The notes under the pieces are model-generated. The model did not search any database. It was given only the letters and a program-made list of their open reading frames with translations, and was not told the DNA's origin. Position numbers and translations under genes: made by a program. From Minisyncoccota bacterium (GTDB lineage Bacteria; Patescibacteriota; JACMRA01), in contig JACMRA010000002.1 in NCBI GenBank assembly GCA_014376695.1, positions 7,323-71,322 on the forward strand: a DNA stretch of 64,000 bases. Direction: 5' to 3'. This document shows, one piece after another, positions 1-64,000 of this stretch (the first letter of the stretch is position 1; every line of letters starts with the position of its first letter).

Positions 1-130
1 TGAATTAAGTCCGTTCGGAATGTCGTAGTTGTAATTAACGTACAATAAGAATTATAACACTGTTGACAATTTAATGTTATTTGAATTTCTTTTATCAAAG
101 TTCTAATTTAGGAGGAGCTTTATAAAATCT

Positions 131-2749
131 ATGAAAATTCAGTACACGCAATTTAAATTAGTTGTAGTTACAGGGATATTGCTAATTTCAATTTGCCTCA
201 TCACAAACCAGCTCAGCAGTCCAAAGGCGAGCCTTATAACAAAAGCCGCGGGTAATATTATTTACCTTTCACCGGGCGGATTAGACTCCAATCCTGGAAG
301 TCTCGATTCCCCAGTCAAGTCTTTGGTAAAAGCTCGAGATCTATCTCGCTCAGCCAAGGTAAACGGCCTTACTAGCCAAGTTAATTTATTGCCGGGTTCT
401 TATAAGATGGATTACACGCTAAATTTGAACGGAAGTGATAGCAGTACACTCTGGAAGTCCGCAAGCATAGGCACCGTAAAAATTGTAGGCAGTTCGATTA
501 TTTCTAATAACTGGCAAAGTTTGGGTAATAATCTATACAAGAATATCCTACCTCAAATCACTAACTATCCGCGGCAGCTTTATGTAAATGGTCAAAAAGC
601 CATTCGATCTACAAGCCAAAACGGGCCGGCCATGAATTTGTCAGCTAATAGTAACCAAATTTTCGGTGTCACTGGGGCGAGTAACTGGAGTAATCCAACT
701 GATATTGAGGTCAGTGGCTTTAACAAATCATACTGGAAACATTCGCGACAAAAAGTCTCATCTGTCAACGGTACAACTTTAAACCTAAATCAAAATTGGA
801 CTAATATACCCAACTCAAATGCCTGGGGATTAGGATTTGTTGCGGATAATATCACGGTCGAAAATGCTAAAGAGTTAATCAATGTGGATAATGAATGGTA
901 CTACGACCGCAGCGAAAAAGCACTTTACTACCAATCTAGCACAAACCCAAATGAGAAGTCGTTCAGCCTGCCGATTCAAGAAAAATTGATTGATATAACA
1001 GGAGCCTTCGATATAGAATTTAACGGAATAAGCTTTGAAGAGGCAAGCTGGGAGCGGCCGAATATTAGCGGAACTCAGGATTACCAAGGCGGGGTAATGT
1101 TCACGAGTCCCAATAGTAGCTGGAGCACCTCGGATGAACAGGTGGTCCCAGGTCATATTACTATGAATAATGTAAATGGGGTCAAATTTATTAACAATCA
1201 ATTCAAGAATCTTGGCGGGGCGGCTTTTAGTTGTTTTGAGAATTGCGTTAATAATATTATAGAAAAAAATTCCTTTGGCGATATTGCAGCCAACGCCATC
1301 ACAATTGGCAATCACAGAAATAAATATAGCAGCAATAATAACAACAAGTTCAACTTTAACACTTTGACAAATGTAGGTAGCGAATATTATAGTACGGTGC
1401 CAATATTTGTAATTTACGCTGGAGGGACGGAGATTGCTTACAATACGATATCCAACACTCCATATTCAGCAATTAGCGTTGGCTGGGGCTGGGCGGATCA
1501 GGATTCTAATTTAAGTAATAATTTAATCCACCACAACCGTATCACTAATTTTAACCAAAAAATAGGGGATGGCGGCGGTATTTATACATTGAGCCGACAA
1601 ACGGGGACGATTATTAGCGATAACTATTTGGATAACAGCAGGTCCACTGATAGAGGTGGGAATACTTTGCTACTTGGATTATACACCGACGAGGGGAGTT
1701 CGGATATGGTTATCGCTAATAATGTAGTTGACCTACCGTATCAATATGCTGTGTATGTATGGAATTCAGCAGGTGGCAGCAACAATATGCGAAATCAAAA
1801 TATTAATAATAATTGGTTCAAGCAATACCCCTGCGACACCAAAAATGGCTGGGGCCCCGAGGAGCCAACAAACGCACCTAGCGCACCAACAAATACCTGC
1901 GTTTTGGTAAGGGGAGTTGGGACAACCTATTATTCTAATAACGGGTATAGTGGAGCGGAGCCGGCAGCAGCCCAGCTTATCGTAAATAATAGCGGTACCG
2001 GGAGCAATGAATCATACTTTGTGGCTAATCCTGATATCGTAACTGGAGGAGTTGCAAGCTCAAGCGCTACTATTTCTACACCGCCGTTTATACCGCCACG
2101 CCTAATTCTAAAAGTGCTACTTCAGGGAGCTTACTCAACAGGTACCAATACGATGAGACCTCAACTAAAATCCAAAAATTTGATACCGGCATCTCAACCT
2201 TATAATATTAGTCCGTGGGCTTATACGGACTCCGAAAATATTAATCAAAGCACTTTAACAAGCGAGGCTATTGATTGGATCTTGATTGAATTCCGCAGCG
2301 AAACAGGTCAAATACTTTCTAAAAAAGCTGGTATTTTAAAATCTAACGGCGAGGTCATCAATGGAGATCAAGACTATTTGACACTCCCAACAAATCTGAC
2401 TTCTGGAAATTACAATCTTGTGATTCGTCATCGAAACCATCTTGCCATCAAAACTTTGAACCCAATTCCAATCAATGTCATAAGCGGCAGTCTTAATAAT
2501 TTGGATTTGACAGCTAATTTAAATGTCGCGGGCAATAATCAGGCATCACTCGGCAACGGAAAATACGGTCTCAAGCTTGGCAATGTTAACAGCGATAATG
2601 TTATAAATTCGATTGATAGAATTAGAAGTAGGCTTTCGCCAGACAGAATTAATAGCTACGCAATAGAAGATATCAATATGGATGGAAATCTTACATCCGC
2701 GGATAGAATACTTTCTCGGCTCAATTATGACTCAATAGAAATAGTGTAA
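131..2749 (+). CDS. Secreted right-handed beta-helix (pectate-lyase-fold) protein with C-terminal dockerin-like repeat pair
   Basis: 872-aa ORF with an N-terminal hydrophobic signal/anchor (FKLVVVTGILLISICLI). Beta-helix-type repeats are present (NNQFKNLGGAAFSCFENCVNNIIEKNSFGDIAANAITIG, NLIHHNRITNF, GGGIYT). Two Ca-loop dockerin-like segments sit near the C-terminus (NVNSDNVINSIDRIRSRL, DINMDGNLTSADRILSRL). Confidence 0.6.
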   Translation: MKIQYTQFKLVVVTGILLISICLITNQLSSPKASLITKAAGNIIYLSPGGLDSNPGSLDSPVKSLVKARDLSRSAKVNGLTSQVNLLPGSYKMDYTLNLNGSDSSTLWKSASIGTVKIVGSSIISNNWQSLGNNLYKNILPQITNYPRQLYVNGQKAIRSTSQNGPAMNLSANSNQIFGVTGASNWSNPTDIEVSGFNKSYWKHSRQKVSSVNGTTLNLNQNWTNIPNSNAWGLGFVADNITVENAKELINVDNEWYYDRSEKALYYQSSTNPNEKSFSLPIQEKLIDITGAFDIEFNGISFEEASWERPNISGTQDYQGGVMFTSPNSSWSTSDEQVVPGHITMNNVNGVKFINNQFKNLGGAAFSCFENCVNNIIEKNSFGDIAANAITIGNHRNKYSSNNNNKFNFNTLTNVGSEYYSTVPIFVIYAGGTEIAYNTISNTPYSAISVGWGWADQDSNLSNNLIHHNRITNFNQKIGDGGGIYTLSRQTGTIISDNYLDNSRSTDRGGNTLLLGLYTDEGSSDMVIANNVVDLPYQYAVYVWNSAGGSNNMRNQNINNNWFKQYPCDTKNGWGPEEPTNAPSAPTNTCVLVRGVGTTYYSNNGYSGAEPAAAQLIVNNSGTGSNESYFVANPDIVTGGVASSSATISTPPFIPPRLILKVLLQGAYSTGTNTMRPQLKSKNLIPASQPYNISPWAYTDSENINQSTLTSEAIDWILIEFRSETGQILSKKAGILKSNGEVINGDQDYLTLPTNLTSGNYNLVIRHRNHLAIKTLNPIPINVISGSLNNLDLTANLNVAGNNQASLGNGKYGLKLGNVNSDNVINSIDRIRSRLSPDRINSYAIEDINMDGNLTSADRILSRLNYDSIEIV

Positions 2750-2821
2750 GCTACCATTTAGCTGATCTTGACTATTTTGAGAATAATTGGCAACTTATTG
2801 CCATGTAACCGATTTAGACAT

Positions 2822-6042: not shown

Positions 6043-6438
6043 ATGTCTACAGCAAAAATTCAAACAGGCGATACCGTTCAAGTTATATCAGGCAATTACC
6101 GTGGCACGGTCGGAGTCGTAACTAAAGTTATCATAACAAAAGCACGCAATGGATTAACAATGAAGCGTGCTAGTGTAAGTACTGTACCCAAAATCGCAAA
6201 ATATCGAAAGAGCCAGAGCGTGCAAGGAACAACTTACCCAGGTCAAAAATTTGATATTGACCGAACAATAGACCTATCCAATCTTAATTTATTTACTGGA
6301 TCAACAATCTCTAAATCCATGATAGAATTAAAGGACGGCAAAAAAGTTCGCGTTTATAAAAAAACTTCTGAAACTGTCACAAAAGAAAAAGTCGCCAAGA
6401 TCAAGGTAGGCCCACAATTAGAAACAGATTCCAAATAA
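6043..6438 (+). CDS. rplX: 50S ribosomal protein L24 (extended)
   Basis: KOW motif IQTGDTVQVISGNYRGTVGVVTKV. Lies immediately upstream of rplE, as in spc operons. Confidence 0.85.
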   Translation: MSTAKIQTGDTVQVISGNYRGTVGVVTKVIITKARNGLTMKRASVSTVPKIAKYRKSQSVQGTTYPGQKFDIDRTIDLSNLNLFTGSTISKSMIELKDGKKVRVYKKTSETVTKEKVAKIKVGPQLETDSK

Positions 6439-6502
6439 CTAGATTAAGCAATCTTAGTTTATATTATACAAGTACCAATTAAACTCTTTTCATTTTTAAA
6501 AT

Positions 6503-7060
6503 ATGGCTAGCAATATCCCACCCGTCAAATTAGATACACAAGCTCTTTTTGATACAGCTTTTAATACTGTAGCTAAAACCAGCCCCAAAATAAACAAATT
6601 TTCACTCCCTTCTGTTGATTCTGTAGTAATCAATGTAGGGGTCGGAAAAAACGACAATAAACAAAAACAAGATATAGCAGATTATCTACAAAAACTCACT
6701 GCTCAAGTTCCAAAAAAAGTTTCCTCTAAAGTATCCATCGCCTCTTTTAAGGTTCGAAAAGGAGATACTGTTGGTTTAGTTGTTAGTCTTCGCGGTCAAC
6801 GGGCCAGAGATTTTCTTTTGCAATTAATCTATATCGCATTGCCTCGAACAAGAGATTTCAAAGGTGTCAAGGCAACTGCCTTCGATAAGGATTTTTCAAC
6901 CTATTCATTAGGTATTGATTCTTCGGCAATTTTCCCTGCGGTTGGTTTCGATACTTCCATTAATTTTGGGATGCAGATGAATATCAAATTCAAACACAAA
7001 ACTCCGCTTAACCCAAGCTACCTAACGGCCCTGAGCTTCCCTTACAAAAAAGTAGCATAA
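6503..7060 (+). CDS. rplE: 50S ribosomal protein L5
   Basis: VVINVGVGK..., KVRKGDTVGLVVSLRGQRARDFL and ALPRTRDFKGV are typical L5 blocks. Confidence 0.9.
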   Translation: MASNIPPVKLDTQALFDTAFNTVAKTSPKINKFSLPSVDSVVINVGVGKNDNKQKQDIADYLQKLTAQVPKKVSSKVSIASFKVRKGDTVGLVVSLRGQRARDFLLQLIYIALPRTRDFKGVKATAFDKDFSTYSLGIDSSAIFPAVGFDTSINFGMQMNIKFKHKTPLNPSYLTALSFPYKKVA

Positions 7061-7107
7061 TCATAAATTTAACCAACTAGAAAATAAGAATAATATAATT
7101 AAATAAT

Positions 7108-7293
7108 ATGGCTAGAAAAGCAATGATTGTAAAAGCGCTCAAGGAGCCAAAATTCAAAACAAGGACAGTTCGCCGATGTAAGGTCTGTGGTCGAAATCGC
7201 GGATATTTACGATACTTCGATATGTGCCGAATCTGTGTGCGAGAGCTAGCTATGAAAGGTGAGCTAAACGGCTTTTTCAAAAGCAGTAAATAA
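7108..7293 (+). CDS. rpsN: 30S ribosomal protein S14, zinc-type (type Z)
   Basis: 61 aa: MARKAMIVK...[33 protein letters not shown]. The CxxC...CxxC zinc knuckle is intact. Confidence 0.9.
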
Positions 7294-7335
7294 TAATTAA
7301 AAGATAATTTCAAACCAAGTAAATATAAAATACCT

Positions 7336-7707
7336 ATGTCAATGTTCGACCTAATGAGTGATTTCGTAGCCCGAGTCAACAACGCTGTAACAGCACAAAA
7401 ATCTACTGTGAAAGTACTAAAAAACAATTTAGTAACTCAAGTATGTAAAAAACTAGTTAAATTGAACTATTTTGAATCCTTCGCTGAAGGTGAAGACTAC
7501 GAGTTAGAAGTCGTTTTAACCAAAAATATTACTAAGCTTACCAGAATTTCCAAACCAGGAAAGCGGGTTTATACAGGTTTCGAAAAGTTCCCACGTGTAA
7601 TCGGCGGTAAAGGATGGAATATTATCACATCATCAAAAGGTGTTCTTACTAACTTCGAGGCTAAAGAGCAAAAAGTAGGAGGTGAATTACTTTTTCAAAT
7701 CATTTAA
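7336..7707 (+). CDS. rpsH: 30S ribosomal protein S8
   Basis: N-terminal MSDFVARVNNA (the S8 DxIxDMLTRIRNA-like block) and C-terminal GGELLFQI. Follows S14 in order. Confidence 0.9.
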   Translation: MSMFDLMSDFVARVNNAVTAQKSTVKVLKNNLVTQVCKKLVKLNYFESFAEGEDYELEVVLTKNITKLTRISKPGKRVYTGFEKFPRVIGGKGWNIITSSKGVLTNFEAKEQKVGGELLFQII

Positions 7708-7771: not shown

Positions 7772-8665
7772 ATGACTCATACAGTTCTACTTTTTTATAA
7801 ATTTGTTAATATCTCGAACCCACAACAAGTATTAAATTCTCAGCAGAATCTCTGCAAATCCTTAGGTCTCAAAGGTAGAGTTATTATATCTGGCGAGGGG
7901 ATTAACGGCACGCTAGAAGGCCTGAATTCCGATTGCGGCGAGTATATAAGACAGATGCACCAGATAGATGTTTTTAGGGATATAGCGTTCAAGCAGAGCG
8001 TAGGCAGCGGATCGTGCTTTCCAAGGTTATCAATTAAGGTTCGAGAGGAGATTGTCACGACCAAGCTACCTTATACAAAAGACCTTGGTCCTCATTGCGG
8101 CTTTACCGGGAAATATTTATCCTCTGAAGAATTAAATCAATGGTATGGCGATGGTCGCGAATTTTATATGGTTGATATGCGTAATGACTACGAGTACAAC
8201 ATTGGGCATTTTAGAGGTTCTATTTTGCTCAAAAATCTAAAAAACTTTAGGAATTTACCCGATATATTGCCTGAATTAGAACATCTCAAGGGTAAGACAA
8301 TAGTAACTTGCTGTACCGGCGGAGTCCGCTGCGAAAAAGCTTCTGCTTTCTTGATGTATAATTATTTCAAAGACGTTTATCAATTACAGGGCGGTATTGC
8401 AACCTATGTAGAGAAGTACCCCAATCGAGATTTTCTTGGTAAGCTATATGTCTTTGACGGGCGGCTTGCCCTCGGGATCGATACTGACAAACCAGATCAT
8501 ATTATTGTTGGCAAGTGCAGTATCTGCGACGTCCAATCCGAAAATATTACTGATTATTGGTATCTGAATAAGCGTCACCACGGTGTTGTTTGTAGTGATT
8601 GCGTTCTTCGGGACGATGTTAAACTAACTAAAGAAATAATTAACCCGGAACCAATTAAGTGTTAG
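7772..8665 (+). CDS. trhO: Rhodanese-domain tRNA uridine(34) hydroxylase (TrhO/YceA, UPF0176)
   Basis: N-terminal LLFYKFVNI...GRVIISGEGINGTLEG. Rhodanese active-site loop CCTGGVRCEKASAFL. C-terminal Cys-rich tail. Confidence 0.8.
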   Translation: MTHTVLLFYKFVNISNPQQVLNSQQNLCKSLGLKGRVIISGEGINGTLEGLNSDCGEYIRQMHQIDVFRDIAFKQSVGSGSCFPRLSIKVREEIVTTKLPYTKDLGPHCGFTGKYLSSEELNQWYGDGREFYMVDMRNDYEYNIGHFRGSILLKNLKNFRNLPDILPELEHLKGKTIVTCCTGGVRCEKASAFLMYNYFKDVYQLQGGIATYVEKYPNRDFLGKLYVFDGRLALGIDTDKPDHIIVGKCSICDVQSENITDYWYLNKRHHGVVCSDCVLRDDVKLTKEIINPEPIKC

Positions 8666-9954
8666 ATTGGTAGTCTCTTGACGATGGCTTTTGTATTTGG
8701 TTGTAGGAGATAATAATTAGGAAAGCCAGATTTTCGGCGATCATATTCTTTTTGGTTACTGCTTTTGACCTTGGCAATCTCGCCTTCAAATAATGCATTT
8801 TGAACCTCAATATCTTTGAACAGCCTGTCCATCTGAACTCGTCGCCCGATAAATTCATCATAATCTAGGTCAAATTGCTCTTGCCAGACTGTCATTAATA
8901 CCGATCCTTTAGCAAGGCGTCCGTTGGTACCGAGAGTTGGTTTATTGTTGCATTCTTGAATTGACTTGGCTATTGAGGTTGACAATTTAGAATTGCTCGG
9001 TATATCTAAGCTAGTGAAGTATTTAATGGTCTCGGTCTTTTTTGGTTCGAGGCTTGCGCAAAATTGGTTAATTGTTTCGACATTAAAACCTTTGTTGACT
9101 AAGGCTTGGCAGCTTTGGATGTAGTTATTTCTGTATTGAATTAGGGAAGGAATATAAGAAACAGATTCAAGGTTTTGTTTTAGGATTTTTAGGGAATCCT
9201 CGTATGAAAGCACAATGTTATTCAAATTATTATCAAAATATTTATAAGTTAGGATATTAGATTCGTTGGTTATTTGCGAGTAATTGCCATTTACAACAAG
9301 CTTTTTGCTCAAGTAGTCGTCCATCGAAGATTGTTGCGAGCTGTCATCGGTAATAATAGGCTGCATGCTGCAGCTACTGGCAACATTTGTGTTAATGTAT
9401 TTGTCCAAACTCTGGGTATAAGTGAGTAGGTTTGTCACTGTATTGCTGTGGTCAATTTTAATTTTATTGATTTGATTTTGATTTGATAAATGTATAATCT
9501 CTAGCCCAGCTGGCTGAATTGATATCAGATACCATCCTAATCCGCTTATAACTAGGCCAAAAGCTAGTATCCAAACGAATCTATTTTTCCAAGATTTTTT
9601 TCGCAGAACTGGAGCGGGGGGTAGGATCTCGGCTTTATCTTTTTTGGAACGGCCGAAACTGAACCAAGAATTTTTAGCTTTTTCAAGGTCTTGATTTTCG
9701 GATTTTGAGGAAGTTTGGCTTGAATTTGAGTAAAAATTATCATCTGGATTCTTTTCTGAACTCGGTGATTGATAATTATTGTAAATGGCTTGAATTTTGG
9801 CAAAGTCATTATCGTCAGTAGGCCGGTTGGGTTGCTCGCTCATAAAATTGTTAACGATATTGGCAGCCTGATGTTTGTTTTGGTCGTTTTTGGATATGTC
9901 GTTAGAGCTCTTGTTGTAGTCGTCTAGTAAAGGATTCGGTTTATAATTAGACAT
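8662..9954 (-). CDS. Hypothetical single-pass membrane protein
   Basis: 430-aa ORF. The N-terminal region is low-complexity and polar, followed by one TM (FVWILAFGLVISGLGWYLISI). No recognisable family. Confidence 0.45.
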   Translation of the reverse strand: MSNYKPNPLLDDYNKSSNDISKNDQNKHQAANIVNNFMSEQPNRPTDDNDFAKIQAIYNNYQSPSSEKNPDDNFYSNSSQTSSKSENQDLEKAKNSWFSFGRSKKDKAEILPPAPVLRKKSWKNRFVWILAFGLVISGLGWYLISIQPAGLEIIHLSNQNQINKIKIDHSNTVTNLLTYTQSLDKYINTNVASSCSMQPIITDDSSQQSSMDDYLSKKLVVNGNYSQITNESNILTYKYFDNNLNNIVLSYEDSLKILKQNLESVSYIPSLIQYRNNYIQSCQALVNKGFNVETINQFCASLEPKKTETIKYFTSLDIPSNSKLSTSIAKSIQECNNKPTLGTNGRLAKGSVLMTVWQEQFDLDYDEFIGRRVQMDRLFKDIEVQNALFEGEIAKVKSSNQKEYDRRKSGFPNYYLLQPNTKAIVKRLPI

Positions 9955-10032
9955 ATTTTGTGTTGGCTAATAGTTCTATTATACTGTTAACTAAGTTTTG
10001 CATAATATCCAGTATTTCGTCAAATTAAGAAT

Positions 10033-12348
10033 TTATCTATCTCTCGGGACTTTGAGATAATCTAGAGAAAAACTCATCATTTCTTTGAATCCAGGCATAA
10101 GCGTTGTGTCCGCAAAGTTGGTAACGACACCTGGACGGGGTTCAGAGATTTTTATAACTATCATTACTTCAGCGTTGGTGGTAGGGCCGTAACCGATTAA
10201 TGTATGGTCGAATAAGCCTTTTTCGGTGTTGCAGGTGTAATCGCAGGGTTTATCGTCGTGTTGCCTCGTGATTTGAGCGGTACCAGTTTTGGCCGCGACG
10301 CTGTATCCAGGAATGCTATTACGGCCGACTTGCTGACCTAAATACCCTTCGTCAATTACAGCTTGCATATATCCTGTAGTTAGTTTTGCACTTTTTTCGG
10401 TAAATATGGATTTTGGTTCTGGTCGATTTAGAATTGAGTCACTCCCGTGGCCATCGTCAATTTTGCCATTTTGATCTACTATCTTTTCGACGAGAAACGG
10501 CTCTACCATCTGACCTTTGTTCGCTAAGGCTGTGTAGGCCCGAGCAAGTTGAATGGTACTAATAGCAATCCCTTGACCAAACCCGTGCTGAGCAAAGCAA
10601 TATTGACAGTCCATATTCTTTTCGAGGCTACTTAAATTACCATTACCGCCCCCTGCAAAGGTGGCCTCAGTTGGCTTGTTAAACTCGAACTTGTTGACAA
10701 AATAGTCTCGGAGCTTGACATTGCCCAAGCTGTCTGTAATATCAGATATCATAGTATTAATAGAATCTCTAATTGTGAGCTTGAGGTCGTTTTGCCTGCC
10801 TGAATAAGAAATATTTTGGGAATTACTAATTCGTAGCTCCGCACCGTTTAATTCTTTGTAAATTTTGCCATTTTTATCATAATCGGCTTTTTTCCAGTCT
10901 TCTGGTACTCCGATACGCTGGCCTTGGCTCCCTGTGGTACCTTTTTCATATTCGGTTAGTGCAGCGGCCACCGTAAGCGGTTTCATAACAGACCCGACTT
11001 CATAATCTTCGCTAGTTGCGACATTTCGATAGGTGGATACCTCGCCTTGACCGTATAAATTTGGATCGAAGCTTGGAGCTGAGGCAAGGGCTAAGATTTT
11101 TCCGGTCTTGGGGTTCATTACTACCATAGAGGCGTTGCGAGGTTTGCCGTTGGCGTTGGTATTTTCTTTTATGGCTTTTGCTAGTATTTCCTCGGCTTTT
11201 TGTTGCATTGTCATATCTAGAGTTAGGTAGATATCGGAGCCATTTTGGGCTGGGAGAGAATCTTCGTTATTGAGCTTGTTGCCAAGAATAACCGTACGCC
11301 CGTTTCGCCCGGCCAGTGTTGAGCAGTATTTTTGCTCCAGCCCGTAATAGCCAATAGCATAATCGAGGCTTGAGGCGCCGCTTCGGTCGTTATCTTCGAT
11401 CATTTGCCTGCACTCAGTTTTGACGCCCTCTTGGCGGCTAACATTGTATTTGGGGATGTAACCAAGAGTTGCACCGAGTAGGTCGCCATAGGGATAGGAA
11501 CGAGTTATATTTTCGCGAACTCCGAGCCATGTAAAATATGCCATTTTGTTGTCGCTTTGATCTATGAGATAGTTTGCCACTTTTTTTTGAAATTCAGTAA
11601 TACCTTTGACCAAAATTACGTACCGCGATGGGTTTTCTTTTGTGGTTTCTAGATTGATTAAGTCCAACACGGTATTATATGGAAGGTTGAGATTGCCGGC
11701 CAGCCCCGAGGCCAAATCTTCAGTTTTGAGTTTATTTTTGTTAATTATAGACTTGAGAGCTAGAGGGTCGATTGAGAGATTGGCTGTATTTTGAGTGCTA
11801 GTTAACGAAATCTTTGGCTGGTTTCTAGCGAAATCTTGAATGTATATTTGGCCTTTTTTTTGATTTTCGATAATGCTTCGCCTGACAACCCCGCTTCCAG
11901 CGTCAATTGTATTATTGGCAGACACATAATAATTAAAAATTTGGAGATTGGCCAAATGCAATATAAGTAATCCAAAGATCACAAAAGTCCCAAATTTAAC
12001 TACGTTTATTCGGCCCCTTGTAGCTATCCACGCGTAAATTGCCGACACCAATATAGAAATTTGCATCTTGAGGCTCTTGCCAAAAATGGAGAATATTCCG
12101 CTTGGAGCCGTCTTTTTGGTAGTTGTCCTAGTTTTTGCTTGCTTGCTTTTTGGTTTTTCAAATTCCCGATAAATTGACTTAGTGCTAGGTGAGGTAAAGT
12201 TACTATTTTTGGTACTTTTTGTTGGTCGGGTATTAGAATCAGTTAATTGAGCAAAGCTTTCGTGAATTTTTGTGGTCAATTGTTTCAAATTAGACTGTTC
12301 ACGGGATATAGTTTTTAGGTTATTTATGTTTAATTTTATTTTTGCCAT
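10033..12348 (-). CDS. Class B penicillin-binding protein (PBP2/FtsI-type transpeptidase)
   Basis: N-terminal TM, SxxK (GSVMKP), SxN (SQN) and KTG (AAKTGTAQ) transpeptidase motifs in the canonical order. Confidence 0.85.
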   Translation of the reverse strand: MAKIKLNINNLKTISREQSNLKQLTTKIHESFAQLTDSNTRPTKSTKNSNFTSPSTKSIYREFEKPKSKQAKTRTTTKKTAPSGIFSIFGKSLKMQISILVSAIYAWIATRGRINVVKFGTFVIFGLLILHLANLQIFNYYVSANNTIDAGSGVVRRSIIENQKKGQIYIQDFARNQPKISLTSTQNTANLSIDPLALKSIINKNKLKTEDLASGLAGNLNLPYNTVLDLINLETTKENPSRYVILVKGITEFQKKVANYLIDQSDNKMAYFTWLGVRENITRSYPYGDLLGATLGYIPKYNVSRQEGVKTECRQMIEDNDRSGASSLDYAIGYYGLEQKYCSTLAGRNGRTVILGNKLNNEDSLPAQNGSDIYLTLDMTMQQKAEEILAKAIKENTNANGKPRNASMVVMNPKTGKILALASAPSFDPNLYGQGEVSTYRNVATSEDYEVGSVMKPLTVAAALTEYEKGTTGSQGQRIGVPEDWKKADYDKNGKIYKELNGAELRISNSQNISYSGRQNDLKLTIRDSINTMISDITDSLGNVKLRDYFVNKFEFNKPTEATFAGGGNGNLSSLEKNMDCQYCFAQHGFGQGIAISTIQLARAYTALANKGQMVEPFLVEKIVDQNGKIDDGHGSDSILNRPEPKSIFTEKSAKLTTGYMQAVIDEGYLGQQVGRNSIPGYSVAAKTGTAQITRQHDDKPCDYTCNTEKGLFDHTLIGYGPTTNAEVMIVIKISEPRPGVVTNFADTTLMPGFKEMMSFSLDYLKVPRDR

Positions 12349-12363
12349 CGCGGACTTGATTTT

Positions 12364-14550: not shown

Positions 14551-14889
14551 ATTTGGTAGTTAAAATAATTATAAAAATTTGTAAAAATATGTTACTATAT
14601 TAAAAAACTTAATTGAAATAACTAAAAATTATAATTTATTTATGGAGTTTCTTGATTTTATTTGTTTCGACTTGAAGGTTGAGACTTATTTGACTAAAAT
14701 TGTATTGCCCGATAGATTATGATATAATATGATTGTATTCTAATAATATCGAGAGTATATAACAATTAATAGTTTTGTACTATTTTTTAAAACAGATAGC
14801 CCAGAATTAGCTTTTGCAATGTATCAAATCAAATAAAAAAGTATTAATCAAAAAACGTCAAGCCAAATTAATTTTTAAAAAACAATTTT

Positions 14890-22023: not shown

Positions 22024-22044
22024 TTTAACCAGTGTATTATAATT

Positions 22045-49219: not shown

Positions 49220-50341
49220 TCAATTAATTTCTTCGGAACTATAAAACAAAATGTGAGAATCACTTGCTAATTTATAAGCATAGAGTGTGCCGCCTCTATA
49301 TTTTATATCAGTCAAATATTTCACTCTAAAATACAGCCCGTCAAGGAGAGTTACGCCATGATAAGGTAAAATGAAATTATTTTTGTCTATAGGTAAAAAA
49401 CCAAGATTAAGAGGTTTGGGAGAAAGTGCTAATCTAAGATGGTGCGGGGCCAATTTTTCTAAAAAATCTAACTTTTCCCGCAAGGCTAAGAAACCTAAAA
49501 ACTTTAGAGTGGTATTTTTAGCTTTTTTACTGAGTTTAGCTCTTAAAAACTCCACACTATGATCTTCTTTATACTTACTAAAGTTATAGATTTTTTTTAG
49601 AAGTTTTGTATTTTTTGTAGGAGGGGGAACTATTCTTAAGACTGAGCTCATTACCGTATTTAACTTATCTGTAAAAACTTTATCCCCCTCATCAAGTTTA
49701 GTTTTAAGATATCTGGTTTCTTTGTCCCATTGTTTATAAAAAGATGGGTATAAAGATGTAAGAATATCCAACTTAATCAGCTTAACACCTGTTATACCTA
49801 GATTCTTTATATACTCAGAAACTTTATTGACATAAGCGTCAGATCTATAATTTCGTATACCAAGGCTTCTGCGCAGAATACCTTCGCAAAAAAGATTGAC
49901 CAGAGCTCATGGTTTATATATTTGTCGAATAGCTAAAGTTAACCTCTCTACCTGTTTCAAAAAAAGTACCTCAGACAAATCTGGATAAATGGATTCGGTC
50001 TTTAGAGGGTTTGGAATTTTGAAAGGCAATGTCATTATCCCAAACTCAATAGGTAAATTTTTACTGGTAAAATAATCGATTTGCTTTAGCCAATAATCTT
50101 TATGATCCAAGGCAAACTCTCCAGCTCCAGATAAAAATTCACTGCTTATCAAAAGTAGAAACACTTTATTATTAAGGATTTCTTTATGTAATAATTCCGA
50201 ATTTACGTAAGTGCAGGTTTTAGCCAAAAGTTTTTTAACCTTATCGAAAGATATAGACTTATAAATTATTTTTGTCTTAGAATTCGATTCCAAAGTTTCA
50301 AAATCTTTAAAACCGTAAATATAGCTAGCTTTATTACTCAT
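49220..50341 (-). pseudogene. PvcA/DIT1-like (isonitrile-synthase family-like) gene interrupted by a single in-frame TGA (49907-49909)
   Basis: ORFs 49907..50341 and 49220..49771 are in the same frame with only one stop between them (..IRQIYKP-TGA-ALVNLFCEGILRR..). LPFKIPNPLKTESIYPDLSEVLFL...IYKP*A resembles the FPFKSxN..K....PDxAE...Y.PGA blocks I recall for PF05141. The family call is tentative. Confidence 0.4.
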
Positions 50342-54549: not shown

Positions 54550-55029
54550 ATGAAAGTTACCGAATTTTTAACTAAATTGAGACAATTAAACCAAGAGGAG
54601 TTAGCTCAGACCAGCGGCATTGGCCAAGTAATTATAGATTCTTTGAACAGTTTTTTGACATCGAAGCGGTATTTGGATTTGATTGATGGGTTTGGGGAGC
54701 TTGAGAGAGAGGATCAAGGGTTGAATTTGCTACTGAGGCAAAGCCTTGGGGTGTCTAACTTGGTAGGTGGACAGGACTTATCTGGCCAGACGATGGTAAT
54801 AACCGGTACAATGGAGATAAGTCGAACTCAACTAAAAGAGAAATTAGAAGAATGCGGGGTGAAAGTAACAAGTAGCGTTACCAAAAAAACTAATTATCTT
54901 TTGGCGGGGCAAAATAGCGGCTCAAAGTATAAAACGGCCAGCGAACTTGGGGTACCGATTATTGAAATGTCCACGTGGCAGGATCTAAAAAAATATTTAG
55001 AGACTGACAACGAAATCAAGCCTAGTTAG
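54550..55029 (+). CDS. Stand-alone HhH + BRCT protein equivalent to the C-terminus of NAD-dependent DNA ligase LigA
   Basis: From the first ATG: LAQTSGIGQVIIDSLNSFL (HhH) and LSGQTMVITGTMEISRTQLKEKLEECGVKVTSSVTKKTNYLLAGQNSGSKYKTASELGVPIIEM (LigA BRCT pattern GKTxVxTG...R......GAKVxxSVSKKTxxxxxGxxxGSKxxKAxxLGxxxxxE). There is no adenylation or OB domain. Confidence 0.7.
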   Translation: MKVTEFLTKLRQLNQEELAQTSGIGQVIIDSLNSFLTSKRYLDLIDGFGELEREDQGLNLLLRQSLGVSNLVGGQDLSGQTMVITGTMEISRTQLKEKLEECGVKVTSSVTKKTNYLLAGQNSGSKYKTASELGVPIIEMSTWQDLKKYLETDNEIKPS

Positions 55030-55677
55030 ATTATTGCCGATAGACTTTTTTTTGAGGATTTGGAATTTGCCGATTTGATTGGTGTTCTCAATGTGTGGCC
55101 CACCGCAAAACTCCCTAGAATAGATTGTTTGACCGTCTGCGAGGGTATAAATAGTTACTTTGTCGCCGTACTTCTCACCGAATAATCCAATTGCATCCAA
55201 CCCTTTTGCTATGTCAGGAGTTGTTTCAATTTTGGTCATTGTAAGGTGCTTGTCGATAATGGCTTGGACCTGCATCTCGATATTTGTTATAGTTTCTGGA
55301 GTGAGATCGCTCGAATTTAGATTAATATCAAAGCGGGCTTTATCTTCCAAAATGGCAGACCCCATTTGGTGCAGCTGCGTCCCGAAGATACTTCTCAACA
55401 CTTGGTGTAGAATATGCGTCGCCGTGTGCATTGCAATCGCCTTGGGGGAGTTGCTACCTAGGCCTGATTTGAATTGGGCAGTGGAGCTGCTTTGAGACAG
55501 GGTTTGATGACTCTCGATGAGTTTTTGTAGGTAATCCACATCCAAAATAAGCCCCTCTTTTTCGATCAGGTATTCGCTGATTTCAATAGGGACTCCATGA
55601 GATTGATATAAATCAAATGTTTTATTGGCTAGCCACTGGGGATCTAGCTTGGTAGCTTTAGGATTATTTGCAGTCAT
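54997..55677 (-). CDS. AlaX-like trans-editing protein: AlaRS helical linker plus editing (second additional) domain, no aminoacylation domain
   Basis: FDLYQSHGVPIEISEYLIEKEG (AlaRS FKLYDTYGFPxDL block), HTATHILHQVLRSIFG (HxxxH), GLFGEKYGDKV and CGGPHIENTNQIG (CxxxH zinc site). 226 aa. Confidence 0.75.
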   Translation of the reverse strand: MTANNPKATKLDPQWLANKTFDLYQSHGVPIEISEYLIEKEGLILDVDYLQKLIESHQTLSQSSSTAQFKSGLGSNSPKAIAMHTATHILHQVLRSIFGTQLHQMGSAILEDKARFDINLNSSDLTPETITNIEMQVQAIIDKHLTMTKIETTPDIAKGLDAIGLFGEKYGDKVTIYTLADGQTIYSREFCGGPHIENTNQIGKFQILKKKSIGNNLTRLDFVVSL

Positions 55678-57371: not shown

Positions 57372-57722
57372 TTAAGGTCGCTTCCACAGCAAAATTTTAT
57401 CCCGTGCAATTTCTTTGGCAAAAATTGGGTCAGTAATTTGACTCAACTCTTTAATATCAACTGAATACCAAAAGTCAGATTGATCAATTGCGTAATCCAA
57501 TTCGTTGATGGTAGGATGTCTAGTCTGGGGTGTATCGGTCGTAAGAATCAGCAGGTCAAAATCACTTTTGAGTTTGTAATCGCCTCTAGCTCTTGAACCA
57601 AATAGCCAGACTTGGCATAGGCTCGGAATATTTGCAAAGACTTCAGTCAACGTATTGATATGCTTTTGCGTAACTCCGTAGGTATTGGCAGGCCTACTTG
57701 GCGTTTGGGTACTCGTTGTCAT
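57372..57722 (-). CDS. Minimal nucleotidyltransferase (MNT) antitoxin-type protein
   Basis: WLFGSRARGDYKLKSDFDLLI is the GSxxxG..x(D/E)xD polymerase-beta NTase motif. It overlaps the upstream HEPN gene by 29 nt. Confidence 0.8.
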   Translation of the reverse strand: MTTSTQTPSRPANTYGVTQKHINTLTEVFANIPSLCQVWLFGSRARGDYKLKSDFDLLILTTDTPQTRHPTINELDYAIDQSDFWYSVDIKELSQITDPIFAKEIARDKILLWKRP

Positions 57723-58134
57723 AGATGGATTTTAGTTTTTGGTATAATTCTGTGAATATTTGGTTGTAAACTCTAATCACGTTTTGGGCAACTTGATTGG
57801 CCGTCCCCTCGTCGTATGTGTGAGCGAGTAAATTTCGACCTTTGATACTGGCTAGCCAATCCTCTTCATCTGTTATTAGATTGTGTTGAAAGGCTTTTTT
57901 GAGTGTAGCTCTTGGTGTGGCCTCGAATTCTAGTCCGGACTCTTGCATATACTCTTTGAGAGTTTTCCAAGCTAGTTCCCAAGTGAACTCATATCTCTGG
58001 ATTAGTGCATCTCGATATAAGTCATTATCAGGCTCGAGTCTAACTGCATCGATAGCTTCTTGTAATCGTTGTAAGGCTTTTTCGTAATTACGGAATTTAC
58101 CAGTGAAACCGGAGATTGGAGGGGTTGGTGTCAT
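57694..58134 (-). CDS. HEPN-domain protein, HI0074 (nucleotidyltransferase substrate-binding) family, toxin-type
   Basis: DALIQRYEFTWELAWKTLKEYM and RNLLAHTYDE (the Rx4H HEPN motif). Confidence 0.8.
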   Translation of the reverse strand: MTPTPPISGFTGKFRNYEKALQRLQEAIDAVRLEPDNDLYRDALIQRYEFTWELAWKTLKEYMQESGLEFEATPRATLKKAFQHNLITDEEDWLASIKGRNLLAHTYDEGTANQVAQNVIRVYNQIFTELYQKLKSIYDNEYPNAK

Positions 58135-58141
58135 AATCTAT

Positions 58142-59908
58142 CTAGAGTAAATTACTATTTTTAATATCAAGAATTTCAGGTATGATAATTTTCTTTAAAT
58201 ATTTATCAACTGATTTTTTAAATTCTGCATTTTTAGTGAACCTTGGAGCGTTTGAGATTATACTAGGCATTTCTTGTACCTTTTTTTTCCAAGCAGGTAA
58301 AAATATTTCGGTTGCACAAACCTTTACAAAGTCTCGGAGGTGATTTTTAATTATAGCCTCTAAAGCATTAAGTCGCTCACTCGGTTCAATCAATGTAATA
58401 ATCCGCGAATTTAAAATGTACAGAAAATAGTACCTAGAGTGTTTAAGTATACTTTCTAAACCTTTATTGGCGCTTTTTTGTTCATTACCACTCAGTAATT
58501 CATATGCTACATTTTCAATAATCTTTTTCTTATCCAATTCTAAGAACATTTGCATTACTAAGTAGTACTCTTTTAGATCGTCTTCCGGTATCTCATCATC
58601 ATCTTTTATATTTAGGATCTCGTCTGGGAATATTGTGGAAAACTTGCTTTGATTATCAAGCTCAATTTTAAACAGTGCGGCTTGACCTTTTTTTGCAATT
58701 TCGGGGAAACCTTTATAAGCTGTATAAGCAAGGATAAAATCTGTAAATTTAACTTTATGCCGAATTGTTAAATTTTGAAATTGTTCGGGTAGCTTTATGC
58801 CTGATTTATATTCTAAATCAATGTAACCATCTCCGCATTGTAGGAAGTATATCCTAATGACGCTCCAAAGTGGTCTATTTGAATAAAACTGCCATAAGTC
58901 TATCTTATTTTGACTATTAGTAAATTTAACAATATTTTCAAGAATATCTGAGTTTTTTTCGATAATTAAAATTTTTGCCAATACTGATACTTTTTCTCGT
59001 TGCATTTTTATAGCGTTTTTAATTGAGTGAATTGTTTGCGCTCCGTTTACTACTTGAGGATTTTCTAGTTTATAAGAGCCTTGATTTTCTGTAACAGAAG
59101 TGCAGACAATTGTAATCCCGTTATTGTAAAACCAGAACAATTCCGGAGTTTCATTAACTGTCATTGTAATATTTTTGTTAATCTTACTATTCCCGAGACC
59201 GAATCTAATATTTTCATCGAAATATTCTTGATCGGATAGCTTGATTACATCAGTACCACTCATAGTCATAATATGAGCTTTATATTTATCATCTTGAGTT
59301 TTATAATCAAATTTTGACATCTTACCTTTATCGACAAAACTGACCATAATCGGCGCTACAGATCCATTTAACTTTCTTAAAATTGATTGCTCACTATAAA
59401 CATTGACATCAATAATTTCACTTCCTTCAATGACGTTATTTAGCTCATCTTGGAAGTCCTTCATTTTAATTTCACCGCAATTAGTTATATATATGTATAT
59501 AATTTTATTACATTCATTAAAATAAGTATATAAATTAGCATCGAGATAGTTTTTTCGGCTTTCAGCCCATTTATTTCTTGATTTTACGGTACTTAATTTT
59601 TCTACGAAATCAATAGAATCTGACTTTTCTTCACTTTGTAGATCTCGTAACTCGCTATTATTTTTATATTTACCCTGATATATTCTAAGGATTTTTTCCT
59701 CATCATTGTAATAGTACGCATCGATACCGCAGTCATTCTTACGGCCACATAATAAATTTTCAATATCTTCTAAATCTTCCTCCGGGATAATGTCATTTTC
59801 AATATTTTTTAAAAACCATTTCACAAATGTATTACCTTGTTCTGTCGTGTTTTTGTTTGTAGAAAAATTTTTATATGCTTTGTCGATGATTTCAATTAGT
59901 TTGCTCAT
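58142..59908 (-). CDS. AIPR-family abortive-infection protein
   Basis: Start at ATG (MSKLIEIID). N-terminal nuclease-like block CGIDAYYYNDEEKILRIYQGKY. Central VVNGAQTIHSI motif, characteristic as I recall of PF10592. Lies 7 nt upstream of the HEPN gene. Confidence 0.65.
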   Translation of the reverse strand: MSKLIEIIDKAYKNFSTNKNTTEQGNTFVKWFLKNIENDIIPEEDLEDIENLLCGRKNDCGIDAYYYNDEEKILRIYQGKYKNNSELRDLQSEEKSDSIDFVEKLSTVKSRNKWAESRKNYLDANLYTYFNECNKIIYIYITNCGEIKMKDFQDELNNVIEGSEIIDVNVYSEQSILRKLNGSVAPIMVSFVDKGKMSKFDYKTQDDKYKAHIMTMSGTDVIKLSDQEYFDENIRFGLGNSKINKNITMTVNETPELFWFYNNGITIVCTSVTENQGSYKLENPQVVNGAQTIHSIKNAIKMQREKVSVLAKILIIEKNSDILENIVKFTNSQNKIDLWQFYSNRPLWSVIRIYFLQCGDGYIDLEYKSGIKLPEQFQNLTIRHKVKFTDFILAYTAYKGFPEIAKKGQAALFKIELDNQSKFSTIFPDEILNIKDDDEIPEDDLKEYYLVMQMFLELDKKKIIENVAYELLSGNEQKSANKGLESILKHSRYYFLYILNSRIITLIEPSERLNALEAIIKNHLRDFVKVCATEIFLPAWKKKVQEMPSIISNAPRFTKNAEFKKSVDKYLKKIIIPEILDIKNSNLL

Positions 59909-60034
59909 AACTTTGAATTTCAAATTTATTATAGTGAACTATAATTCCAATTAACACTAAAAGTCAAGCTCATAATTCAGACTGTTTGTGTAAAAAAGCT
60001 AGTACCAGTTATAGTAATCCTCCTTTATAATAAC

Positions 60035-60928
60035 CTAATCATTCTTCAGCACATTTAAGAATACATCGTTTGGGATATTGACATTTGCAAATTGCTTCAT
60101 ACGCTTTTTGCCTTCTTTTTGCTTGTCTAGGAGTTTCATGCGGCGTGAGACATCTCCACCATAAAGTTTGGCAGTTACATCTTTTCGAAATGGCTTGACG
60201 GTTTCGCGGGCTATTACTCGGGACCCTATTACCGCTTGGATGGCTACTTCTACTTGTTGGCGAGGGATTAGTTCTTTGAGTTTGGTGCAGATTTTGCGCG
60301 AGAGGGCTTCGGAGTTGGCTTTGTGACTTATGGTACTTAGCGGTTCGATTAGCTTGCCGTTAAGGAGGACATCGACTTTTACGAGATTGGATTTCTTGTA
60401 TTGGCTTACTGAGTAGGACATTGAGGCGTAACCTTTTGTGCCTGATTTGAGCTGGTCATAGAAATCAATAATTACTTCACCTAGTGGGATGCTGGCCACA
60501 ATCTGGATTTGACCTAGCGATAGGCTGTTCATAGCAAGCACTTCACCTCGGGCAGTGTTGATTAGCTCAATCACCTTACCAGTAAAGTCATTTGGTGTGA
60601 TAATACTCATCTCGAGATACGGCTCGTAGATAGCCAGGATATTGCTCGGATCAGGTAAATCGGTCGGAGTCTTAACACTGGTAAAGTTGTTTTTGTCGAT
60701 GTCTTTGACATTGATTTGGCTCTGGGAGATGCCTCCGAGTTCTGGTGCTAATATTTCGACTAAAGTCTCTTGCTCATCGGGCGCGGGGTAGTAGTTATTA
60801 ATTAACTCCTTAATTAGACTGAGCCTAGCCTCGGGTCTGATTGGTTGGGTTAGGATTTCTTTGATTTTTGGGTCGAGGTTACTAAGTTCTAAGAACTCCT
60901 TGAATTGTTTGCGTTGGTCGATGGTCAT
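60035..60928 (-). CDS. lepA: Elongation factor 4 (LepA) C-terminal half only (domain V + LepA_C); GTPase domain absent
   Basis: YEPYLEMSIITPNDFTGKVIELINTARGEV, DFYDQLKSGTKGYASMSY, LIPRQQVEVAIQAVIGSRVIARETV and LYGGDVSRRMKLLDKQKEGKKRMKQFANVNIP are near-identical in pattern to EF4 residues about 400-599. The first ~90 aa are at most a degenerate domain III. Confidence 0.85.
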   Translation of the reverse strand: MTIDQRKQFKEFLELSNLDPKIKEILTQPIRPEARLSLIKELINNYYPAPDEQETLVEILAPELGGISQSQINVKDIDKNNFTSVKTPTDLPDPSNILAIYEPYLEMSIITPNDFTGKVIELINTARGEVLAMNSLSLGQIQIVASIPLGEVIIDFYDQLKSGTKGYASMSYSVSQYKKSNLVKVDVLLNGKLIEPLSTISHKANSEALSRKICTKLKELIPRQQVEVAIQAVIGSRVIARETVKPFRKDVTAKLYGGDVSRRMKLLDKQKEGKKRMKQFANVNIPNDVFLNVLKND

Positions 60929-62168: not shown

Positions 62169-63336
62169 ATGGATTACAAAAAAGAAATTATCACCTCAGC
62201 GCCTAATCAAAATAGGGGGGGATATACAACCAACTCGATTAATATCTATCGCATTATCAGAAATTTTGTGTAGAATTCAGGAATTGAAAACTGATAAACC
62301 TCTACAGCGGGTCCATATGTGGAATAATATCGGCTCAAATATAAAAGACGGATTGCTCGAAACTAAATACGAATTTTTTAAAAAACATGGTTTAGAATTC
62401 CCAAGTTTAAATTTAGAAATGGACGATTCCCTAGAATTTCAAACTTATTTAAGAAAGGTATTAGAATCACTAGTTTCTACGGGCGTGATATATAAAGACA
62501 GCGACACTTATAGTGCTTGTAGCGATTGTGGTCATTGTATCGGTATTTCGAGTAGTAGTAGAATTTCTAAATGTTCCAAATGTCCGAGTGAAAATATAAT
62601 TATGGAGGCCAGAAATGGATTGTTTTTAGACCTACCAACTGATAAAATATCTCTAATAAAAGGTAAGACGCCAGCGTTTAAAAATATCAAGCAATTACAC
62701 ACACGATTTAATCACCTCCCAAACAGGATAAATTTAGAAAAAATTCGACCAACAGGTTTATCTTTAGATTTTCTGGGATTTGATGGGTTTGTCTTGGATC
62801 CAAAGTTTGGAATCAGCTTATTACCTCACTTCGTTGCTCAGAAATATGAAGTTGATAAAATAACCCAAGTACAAGGCTACGAAACAATAACAAACACTGC
62901 TCCTTACACCAATACTATACTCTCAAATATCGATTTTGAATATATTTTGACAGGATTGGCTGATAATAATTGTCAATTTTTGGACGAAGAGGTTAATTTT
63001 GTATTATTTCATTTGCCGGTTTTTTTGATTGGATTTGACTCAGTCGTTTCCGAGTCGCGAATCGATCAGTTAAAAGAGGATTATAAAAAGACTGTCCGAA
63101 AACTATCGGCTGTAATTAACGGACTTGAGTTAAGTTCGGAGTCAGTTGTTCCATTAGACAGAGAACTATTAAATCAAGCGATTGATTATTTTGCTCAATA
63201 TAAGTACAAAGATGGCATTATTGCAATTAAAGAATTTGTCAAACAACTTAACAAAAATCCCGAACTGCAAAAACAGGTCTCAAAGAGCGATATAAATACT
63301 ATAAATCAAACTTTTGGACTGATCTTTAAAATCTAA
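62169..63336 (+). pseudogene. Class I aminoacyl-tRNA-synthetase-like (MetRS-like) protein lacking HIGH/KMSKS, interrupted at a G7 run (62215-62221)
   Basis: The ATG at 62169 gives MDYKKEIITSAPNQNRG. Removing one G joins it to ..DIQPTRLISIALSEILCRIQELKTDKPLQRVHMWNNIG (compare MetRS [51 protein letters not shown]). Also LVSTGVIYKDSDTYSACSDCGHCIG...KCSKCPS (zinc-knuckle CP insertion) and GLFLDL (HFFFDL). Confidence 0.4.
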
Positions 63337-63341
63337 TTAAT

Positions 63342-64000
63342 ATGTTTTTATTCAAACAAACTACAGCAAATTTTAGAAATATAAATATTTTATTCGCTCC
63401 CGGCCTCCCTGGAGAGATGACTCAGAGACCAATCTTTGATGATTTGTCTGCCCTTGGATGTGATATTTACTCGTTCTACTATTCTGGCACTTACGAACAG
63501 GTCGGAATTTTTGACCTAGAACAGGCAAATAAAGATTTGGTAAACGCTATACAAGAAATGGAGGATAAGAAACTGCCTTTTACTATACTTGGATACTCGT
63601 TTTCGACATATTTTTTACAAAAAATCGATTTGGCACAATATTCCAATATTCTGGGACTCTCTATGTTTTCACCAATTATGGGACTCGATCCGAAGTCTAT
63701 TAAGGCTGATTTTTTTGAAGAATTAGAAACTTTGCACAAGGATTCTACGCAACCGTTTAAATGTAATTTGGAATTATTGAAAACTCAAATACCCGCCTCT
63801 GAGCTTAATTTCGACTACTCATTATCTAAGTTTGCACTGTACAATTTCCCTGTAACTTTTGCGTATTCATTAAATGATACATTGATCAATGTCGACACAA
63901 TTAATTACAAATTACAAAATTATCGAATTCAACATACTTATAACAAGTTTTTAGTATGGGATAGCTCTGAGGGGTATCATAGACTCGATACATATTATAA
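63342..64000 (+). CDS. Alpha/beta-hydrolase-fold protein (partial, runs off the window end)
   Basis: Hand-translated open frame, not in the ORF track: MFLFKQTTANFRNINILFAPGLPGE...TILGYSFSTYF (nucleophile-elbow-like G-Y-S-F-S)...SLNDTLI...EGYHRL. No stop before position 64000. Confidence 0.45.
   Translation, partial: MFLFKQTTANFRNINILFAPGLPGEMTQRPIFDDLSALGCDIYSFYYSGTYEQVGIFDLEQANKDLVNAIQEMEDKKLPFTILGYSFSTYFLQKIDLAQYSNILGLSMFSPIMGLDPKSIKADFFEELETLHKDSTQPFKCNLELLKTQIPASELNFDYSLSKFALYNFPVTFAYSLNDTLINVDTINYKLQNYRIQHTYNKFLVWDSSEGYHRLDTYY

Follow-up and report, generated by a model that had tools for sequence, protein, structure and literature searches.

Maintained fragments of core genes in a rearranged Patescibacteria lineage: a candidate case of ancient gene fission

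Why would a bacterium keep part of a gene for a core information-processing protein, and do so several times within one short stretch of its genome? The question is raised by 64,000 nucleotides of DNA from a Minisyncoccota bacterium in the Patescibacteria (GenBank assembly GCA_014376695.1, contig JACMRA010000002.1, positions 7,323 to 71,322 of the forward strand), which we refer to as the window. An initial annotation, made from the letters alone, listed nine loci in it as truncated or degenerate, including topA, uvrA, and lepA, which encodes elongation factor 4 (EF4). It offered four options: split genes like those of Nanoarchaeum equitans, maintained subdomain paralogues, genome decay, or assembly chimerism. 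We reexamined these loci using domain calls from Pfam, NCBIfam, and Protein Data Bank (PDB) comparisons. The window, which is the 64 kb of the source genome covered here, is 90% coding and has ~59 open reading frames (ORFs), a single tRNA, and a G+C content of 38%. Its gene set is typical of Patescibacteria, or the Candidate Phyla Radiation (CPR), with genes for ribosomal proteins, release factor 1 (RF1), FtsH, DnaX, RecF, PBP2, sigma70, ParB, and small redox enzymes. The closest named relatives of its UvrA and TopA proteins are in metagenome-assembled genomes (MAGs) labelled "Patescibacteria group bacterium."

Six of the nine loci were true fragments of core proteins: topA, uvrA, uvrD/pcrA, lepA, a ligA-like tail, and a piece of alanyl-tRNA synthetase (AlaRS) (Table 1). 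The claim that ribosomal protein operons are broken up also stood, whereas two further calls, a ribonucleotide reductase and a methionyl-tRNA synthetase (MetRS)-like protein, were not confirmed (see below). Each of the six fragments has its own start and stop and lies beside unrelated genes, as had been noted. This is more than chance would give: of 80 TopA relatives drawn from GTDB genomes, the only ones not at full length were those truncated by a contig end and two further short ORFs. In related uncultured Patescibacteria, the six pieces are intact genes under strong selection. The explanation we favor, at a probability of about 0.5, is that genes were split long ago in a Patescibacteria lineage with a heavily rearranged genome and that most of the pieces serve as subunits of split enzymes.

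The Pfam, NCBIfam, and PDB alignments agreed that the topA locus (TopA-N) encodes the Toprim N terminus alone. It matched Toprim and positions 2 to 100 of the 411-position Topoisom_bac model, and it aligned to residues 5 to 226 of Escherichia coli TopA and no further. The TopA-N terminus lies just past an EYWEI.G.F motif, and residue ~226 of the E. coli protein is what we take to be the D4/D2 boundary. We looked for Toprim and domain III, with its catalytic tyrosine, on one protein, but domains II and III were found neither in the ORF nor elsewhere in the window. More than 30 relatives of TopA-N (59 to 81% identical) are also short, at ~210 to 290 amino acids (aa). Alignment confirmed the short length in at least 15 of them (216 to 267 aa), and two were confirmed by their position well inside contigs of 34.6 kb and 84.7 kb. 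The aligned copies all stop shortly past EYWEI.G.F, and E6, D94, D96, E98, and SAGRVQSPAL are invariant in them. When the TopA-N core was compared with that of an 80% identical relative (L191), the proportion of nonsynonymous differences (pN) was 0.071 and that of synonymous differences (pS) was 0.75, with an omega of ~0.02. In the same comparison, two intact neighbors had pN values of 0.036 (sigma-TsaE) and 0.112 (PBP2), so that the TopA-N core falls in between.

The uvrA gene does stop short of the second nucleotide-binding domain (NBD-II). Its product, UvrA-N, matched positions 2 to 622 of the 924-position UvrA model. Of the two tandem ABC nucleotide-binding domains of UvrA, NBD-I was the only one present, and NBD-II was nowhere in the window. 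A search with UvrA-N returned eight proteins of 652 to 677 aa that were 67 to 91% identical to it, amid hundreds of UvrA proteins of 960 to 1000 aa. Nine aligned copies (58 to 91% identical) end at the same terminal alignment column, and their Walker A, signature, Walker B, and H-loop motifs are invariant. The tail of ~35 aa is conserved in length and moderately conserved in sequence. Compared with UvrA-N of the relative L087 (91% protein identity), pN was 0.057 and pS was 0.77, which is saturated; the tail had an omega of ~0.10. Therefore, both UvrA-N and the TopA-N core are under strong purifying selection.

The other fragments were confirmed in the same way. UvrD/PcrA-C aligned to PcrA residues 245 to 339 and 353 to 639 in the PDB comparison. 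Its start corresponds to residue ~231, past motif II, which agrees with the motif II/III start first proposed. EF4 is represented by its C-terminal half, also as annotated: residues 78 to 297 of LepA-C correspond to EF4 residues 376 to 595 in the PDB comparison, and the N-terminal translational GTPase domain that defines EF4/LepA is absent from it. The first 77 residues had no detectable homology beyond the lineage. An orthologue in L089 (301 aa) is 56% identical over its entire length. The ligA call, a helix-hairpin-helix (HhH)-BRCT tail, was likewise correct, and the match covers positions 528 to 662 of the LigA model. In another relative, L177, a 167-aa BRCT ORF with 31% identity to this tail lies in the same FtsX neighborhood. 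The gene order there is that of the window: UvrA-N, FtsX, a 121-aa ORF, and, further on, the BRCT ORF.

The sixth fragment had been described as an AlaRS editing-domain miniprotein, and it scored 152 bits against positions 393 to 589 of the 595-position AlaRS model and 66 bits against AlaXM. It has the zinc-binding HxxxH and CxxxH motifs expected of a free-standing AlaRS-type editing domain (AlaX), so the description holds, and the protein may simply be an AlaX-type editing protein. Judged from its sequence, it could be an AlaX-like protein editing in trans or, alternatively, the C-terminal part of an AlaRS that has been split.

Table 1. Coordinates, strand, and content of the features of the window discussed in the text
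Feature	Position	Strand	Content
TopA-N	14890-15636	+	Toprim (D1) and first part of D4; lacks the catalytic-Tyr domain
UvrA-N	50820-52814	-	Complete NBD-I with UvrB-binding and insertion domains and a 35-aa tail; lacks NBD-II
UvrD/PcrA-C	19869-21362	+	Motifs III-VI, domains 2A/2B, and a 100-aa insert; lacks Walker A and motif II
LepA-C	60035-60928	-	Lineage-specific 77-aa N-terminal extension, EF4 domain V, and C-terminal domain (CTD); lacks the GTPase domain
LigA-like HhH-BRCT protein	54550-55029	+	LigA model 528-662 of 664; one HhH and a BRCT domain
AlaRS C-terminal/editing-domain protein	54997-55677	-	HxxxH and CxxxH present
L24-L5-S14-S8 block	6043-7707	+	Isolated; cut from the spc operon
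IF-1 ... S13 block	21436-22425	+	Isolated; S11, S4, and rpoA not downstream
L11	27867-28289	+	Alone; followed by recF
L21-HhH fusion	35839-36519	+	Apart from L27
sigma70-TsaE fusion	12364-14550	-	728 aa; sigma70 regions 1.1-4 in frame with the tRNA modification protein TsaE; adjoins TopA-N
Two ORFs called split ribonucleotide reductase	37422-41678	+	434 aa and 948 aa; weak partial similarity to the reductase barrel in the 948-aa ORF
ORF called MetRS-like	62266-63336	+	No family support
Cupin-only ORF	43468-43908	+	146 aa; C-terminal cupin of mannose-6-phosphate isomerase alone
DIT1/PvcA-like gene	49220-50341	-	One frame broken by a single TGA
Defense-like island	57372-59923	-	Low GC (0.305); between parB and LepA-C
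Ser/Thr/Gly/Asn-rich protein	22559-25492	-	977 aa; internal repeats and a C-terminal hydrophobic anchor

We compared the fragments among strains and relatives. Strain variants of all six (91 to 99% identical) were unchanged in length, with one single-residue gap in the whole set. For example, four variants of UvrD/PcrA-C were all 497 aa and 96 to 98% identical with no indels, and five variants of the AlaRS piece were all 226 aa. In more distant relatives, TopA-N, UvrA-N, and LepA-C recurred at the same length (56 to 91% identical), as did the BRCT tail (31%). LepA-C, UvrA-N, and TopA-N occur together on one L089 contig. Gene neighborhoods are conserved as well, and those of topA and UvrA-N are shared with related genomes (L191, L089, L091, and L177). 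In a tree of the fused S6-S18 protein, the genomes bearing fragments cluster, away from those with an intact TopA.

The junctions were also found in independent assemblies. Two Logan contigs from SRR9661224 (12,047 and 13,250 bases) were 100% identical to the window across eight breakpoints, and they run unbroken and unbranched through the lepA, AlaRS, ligA-like, and uvrA junctions. The sole contig break is inside an intact gene, dnaX. JAYWGL01 (L191), a MAG in GTDB that derives from another study, has the gene order of window positions 8662 to 17384, through the topA break, and the same truncated ORFs recur in assemblies from other samples and studies. In the window, we looked at the breakpoints for mobile elements or insertion sequences (IS), repeats, introns, and other RNAs and found none. 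An Rfam scan of the window returned tRNA-Leu and nothing else, and there were no significant repeats.

A change in the genetic code was another candidate explanation for the breaks. SR1 and Gracilibacteria are code-25 groups, and the nearest TopA relatives include lineages labelled SR1 and Gracilibacteria. Stop codons in the window are used in unusual proportions: the 59 ORFs end in TAA (29), TAG (26), or TGA (4). The release factor encoded in the window is RF1. Past the topA and uvrA stops, the frames are full of TAA, TAG, and TGA, and homology does not continue. Because all three stops occur beyond the breaks, codon reassignment (codes 4 or 25) cannot restore topA or uvrA, and we rejected stop codon recoding. 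The DIT1-like gene, which is unrelated to the fragments, was alone in continuing through a TGA.

Rearrangement extends beyond the fragments. Ribosomal protein genes were found in four separate places in the window, as the annotation of four operon fragments implied. The isolated four-gene block L24-L5-S14-S8 also occurs in L091, and in relatives S11 is with L31 and S16, S3 adjoins S17, and S12 is alone. The in-frame fusion of sigma70 to TsaE was found, with 67 to 95% identity, in L091, L176, and L191. It adjoins TopA-N in L091 and L191, and there is no TopA-N on the short L176 contig. The fusion is a marker of the same rearranged lineage. The fragments belong to a clade-wide property that includes scattered ribosomal protein genes and gene fusions, which the initial annotation did not foresee.

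Several observations on other fusions and on the clade itself were made alongside. The HhH part of the L21-HhH fusion resembles a separate ORF in L089. A 428-aa protein in L177 (7517 to 8803) joins C-terminal segments of glutamyl-tRNA synthetase (gltX model 285 to 344 and the anticodon-binding domain) to a NUDIX domain and lacks the synthetase catalytic domain; a clade member thus has a further aminoacyl-tRNA synthetase (aaRS) piece that is split or fused. A single protein of ~195 aa combines S6 and S18 (e.g., L086 17768 to 18352, L091 14517 to 15107, L175 2011 to 2601, and L192-L212). An S18 motif located 21 GTDB loci, and the two proteins were fused in all 21, among them loci in MAGs labelled SR1, Peregrinibacteria, and Saccharibacteria and in one closed 1.27-Mb genome. 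This fusion reaches beyond the split-gene clade. Clade genomes were located with two handmade patterns, whereas universal motifs largely swamped the other GTDB/JGI pattern scans. Some contigs with markers of this Patescibacteria group (L176, L205, L194, and L202) are assigned to Lake Mendota MAGs that are labelled Limisphaerales or Bdellovibrionales; these contigs are probably misbinned.

The favored explanation, ancient fission, would run as follows. An ancestor of this uncultured Patescibacteria lineage would have undergone extensive genome rearrangement. Breaks within operons would have scattered the ribosomal protein genes, and breaks within genes would have produced both fusions (sigma70-TsaE and L21-HhH) and fissions. 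A piece could have persisted as an independent, expressed gene wherever the break coincided with a domain boundary. The pieces surviving in this way would be TopA D1/D4, UvrA NBD-I, PcrA from motif III, EF4 domain V and CTD, the HhH-BRCT tail, and the editing part of AlaRS. Other loci in the genome would encode the complementary halves, and, by analogy with known split proteins, the halves might associate noncovalently. The cut sites are indeed at domain boundaries: in TopA, in UvrA (at the close of NBD-I), in EF4 (ahead of domain V), and in PcrA (past motif II). Furthermore, the Toprim metal-binding residues and PcrA motifs III-VI are preserved, which argues that a catalytic partner exists. 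Split inteins appear unlikely: the TopA-N and UvrA-N tails are ~35 aa, variable, and without a conserved Cys or Ser, and UvrD/PcrA-C begins in helicase sequence.

Some results weigh against split enzymes. The complementary halves did not turn up in the window or in ~120 kb of DNA from related clade members (seven other loci), where tblastn with full-length TopA, LepA, and UvrA detected no TopA C-terminal half (TopA-C), NBD-II, or LepA N-terminal half. We also searched with the C-terminal 542 residues of TopA from L093, which has the nearest intact TopA (66% identical to TopA-N in its N-terminal part). Among the best 120 matches (at least 46% identity), there was no convincing stand-alone TopA-C from the clade. 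Because that database holds more than 30 TopA-N clusters, the lack of such a protein speaks against a conventional partner. The 37-residue tail of TopA-N showed essentially no constraint in the comparison with L191, and so it offers no obvious docking module. In a neighbor-joining (NJ) tree of TopA N-terminal parts, the short forms were interleaved with full-length ones and did not form one clade. Finally, UvrA-N could in principle act as a homodimer without NBD-II.

The candidates for a TopA-C that we rejected were of several kinds. P0349 (L173) lacks Toprim only because its TopA is broken by an in-frame TAA, and P0341, which starts at the same position, is probably of the same type. P0360 is cut by a contig end and has no Met start, and P0335, P0347, P0348, and P0356 are fragments on short contigs that are probably cut by contig ends. 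P0275 begins at contig base 1, and its genome groups with one bearing a full-length TopA. The in-frame TAA is an observation in its own right. It lies at a conserved Lys/Arg position (VLD*LVGY) in a related TopA at L173 9506 to 11755 and L174 126 to 2375, and it was seen in two separate assemblies, where gene callers yield ORFs of 151 aa and 584 aa. A profile search for stand-alone UvrA NBD-II, ranked by summed score, returned mainly multidomain UvrA duplications, nearly all over 1000 aa, and was uninformative.

Because the missing halves were never found, a Nanoarchaeum-like split is plausible but unproven, and a serious rival is that the pieces are stand-alone truncated proteins with no partner, their other domains having been lost and their function reduced or changed. 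Examples would be a homodimeric single-NBD UvrA working like an ordinary ABC ATPase, a Toprim/D4 protein that binds or nicks DNA in a metal-dependent way, and a LepA-C that binds the ribosome and has gained a new N-terminal domain. The failure to find partners, including a clade TopA-C, would be expected, and the 77-aa extension of LepA-C and the constrained 35-aa tail of UvrA-N sit where the missing parts belong. However, the invariant acidic residues of Toprim and motifs III-VI of PcrA need the catalytic Tyr and Walker A domains to make sense, and the activities of TopA, LigA, and AlaRS are normally essential. The partner search also covered the best 120 or 150 matches and a small share of any one genome. 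On this balance we regard the stand-alone explanation as possible but rather unlikely.

We consider it improbable that the pieces are subdomain paralogues, extra copies acting as regulators or decoys beside full-length topA, uvrA, lepA, pcrA, ligA, and alaS genes elsewhere in the genome. Free-standing editing proteins of the AlaX type are known, and the AlaRS piece also matches AlaXM. In addition, the sequence inspected is 64 kb of the source genome, and the interleaving of short and full-length forms in the TopA tree would fit such paralogues. However, conservation of the fragments is at the level expected of orthologues (TopA-N shares 62 to 68% identity with the intact TopA of outgroups, with the low omega given above), and their catalytic motifs are intact. 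Paralogues would be needed for six unrelated genes. The nearest intact TopA proteins are in MAGs labelled SR1, Gracilibacteria, Peregrinibacteria, and Patescibacteria, and an intact TopA placed in the S6-S18 tree always came from a genome outside the fragment-bearing group.

Pseudogenes of ongoing genome decay are very unlikely. The DIT1/PvcA-like gene, with its in-frame TGA, would fit decay, but no relics of the missing parts adjoin the breaks and the coding density is high. The fixed length of TopA-N, UvrA-N, and LepA-C in relatives, a pN of 0.06 to 0.07 against saturated pS, and the near absence of indels in strain variants exclude plain decay of the six fragments. An assembly or binning artefact (misjoins, concatenated contigs, or a misread genetic code) is the least likely of all, because, although the source is a short-read MAG and some clade contigs are misbinned in other MAGs, independent assemblies and related genomes have the same junctions, which excludes chimerism, and no single codon reassignment rescues the genes. 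Therefore, of the four options first raised, decay and chimerism can be set aside, and split genes and maintained subdomain proteins survive.

Two calls in the initial annotation were not confirmed. The first was a split ribonucleotide reductase with a degenerate active site. Its 948-aa ORF had a 33-bit match to the reductase barrel over 117 residues and no PDB match, and the 434-aa ORF beside it matched nothing in Pfam, NCBIfam, or PDB. A relative, L083, has a normal NrdA/NrdB pair. The second was a MetRS-like protein without a HIGH motif. Pfam, NCBIfam, and PDB returned nothing for this ORF, and a single-sequence AlphaFold model had a pLDDT of 34 and was unusable.

Other genes in the window also drew our attention. 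The C-terminal cupin of mannose-6-phosphate isomerase is the C-terminal domain of a larger enzyme in many bacteria. Here it is encoded alone, by an ORF that is kept at 57 to 66% identity in L194 and L210 and that may be a further fission product. The Pfam domain of the DIT1/PvcA-like gene extends across the TGA. This gene sits in a variable island between uvrA-N and tRNA-Leu, and the island is missing from L087, which has the 91% identical UvrA-N. The gene is either a pseudogene or derived from an organism in which TGA is a sense codon. The defense-like island encodes an AIPR abortive-infection protein and a HepT/MNT-type toxin-antitoxin pair. The Ser/Thr/Gly/Asn-rich protein had no family matches and is probably a surface protein.

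If the fission explanation is true, then large-scale fission of genes for core enzymes is not an archaeal oddity and can be fixed and long kept in bacteria with tiny genomes. It would also reveal natural split sites in TopA, UvrA, PcrA, and EF4, which could be of use in protein engineering and in questions of domain essentiality. If the partners do not exist, then the relaxation of DNA, the repair of UV damage, and the charging of tRNA(Ala) in these cells would all need explaining. CPR genome quality estimates and automated annotation are affected, with split markers called "partial" or missed and clade contigs misbinned.

How does this lineage compare with known systems? Bacteria recently restricted to a host also can have many truncated core genes in one stretch. 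However, such pseudogene-rich genomes are sparsely coding, contain IS elements, and evolve under relaxed selection, whereas the window is 90% coding and repeat free, with its fragments under purifying selection. The AlaRS piece resembles AlaX in being small and in having an AlaRS editing domain with HxxxH and CxxxH. It differs in matching better as the C-terminal third of a short AlaRS (152 versus 66 bits) and in extending partway into the region that precedes the editing domain.

Closer parallels are found among split genes. Reverse gyrase consists of two polypeptides in both N. equitans and Methanopyrus kandleri, and in the latter the split is not between the helicase and topoisomerase domains (PMC8185306). 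The heterodimeric M. kandleri enzyme contains a type IA topoisomerase module, a likeness to TopA-N. It is a single archaeal gene with both subunits identified, unlike the Patescibacteria fragments. N. equitans is a close counterpart (PMC8185306; PMC3655853, PMC3491384). It has a tiny genome and is probably host dependent, several of its information-processing genes are scattered as separate ORFs cut at domain boundaries, its genome is rearranged with broken operons, and the proteins affected include AlaRS and a type IA topoisomerase module. The likeness to Nanoarchaeum drawn by the initial annotation is upheld by maintained pieces cut at domain boundaries; a complementary half did not turn up in the window, in the ~120 kb of clade DNA, or among the best 120 TopA-C matches. 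In N. equitans both halves are known, and those of reverse gyrase were tested biochemically, whereas here there is one half per gene. The Patescibacteria also differ in being a bacterial lineage, in their gene set (uvrA, pcrA, lepA, and the ligA tail), and in having six such genes in 64 kb. The literature searched contained no description of split core genes or scattered ribosomal protein operons in Patescibacteria. We tentatively suggest that this lineage parallels Nanoarchaeum among the bacteria and goes further than it does, an ancient burst of scrambling having cut topA, uvrA, pcrA, lepA, ligA, and aaRS genes and left pieces that may work as multisubunit enzymes or as truncated enzymes without supposedly indispensable domains. 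Split genes in a reduced genome are known from Nanoarchaeota; as far as we have checked, what is new is that the splits are in a bacterium, which genes they affect, and how densely they lie.

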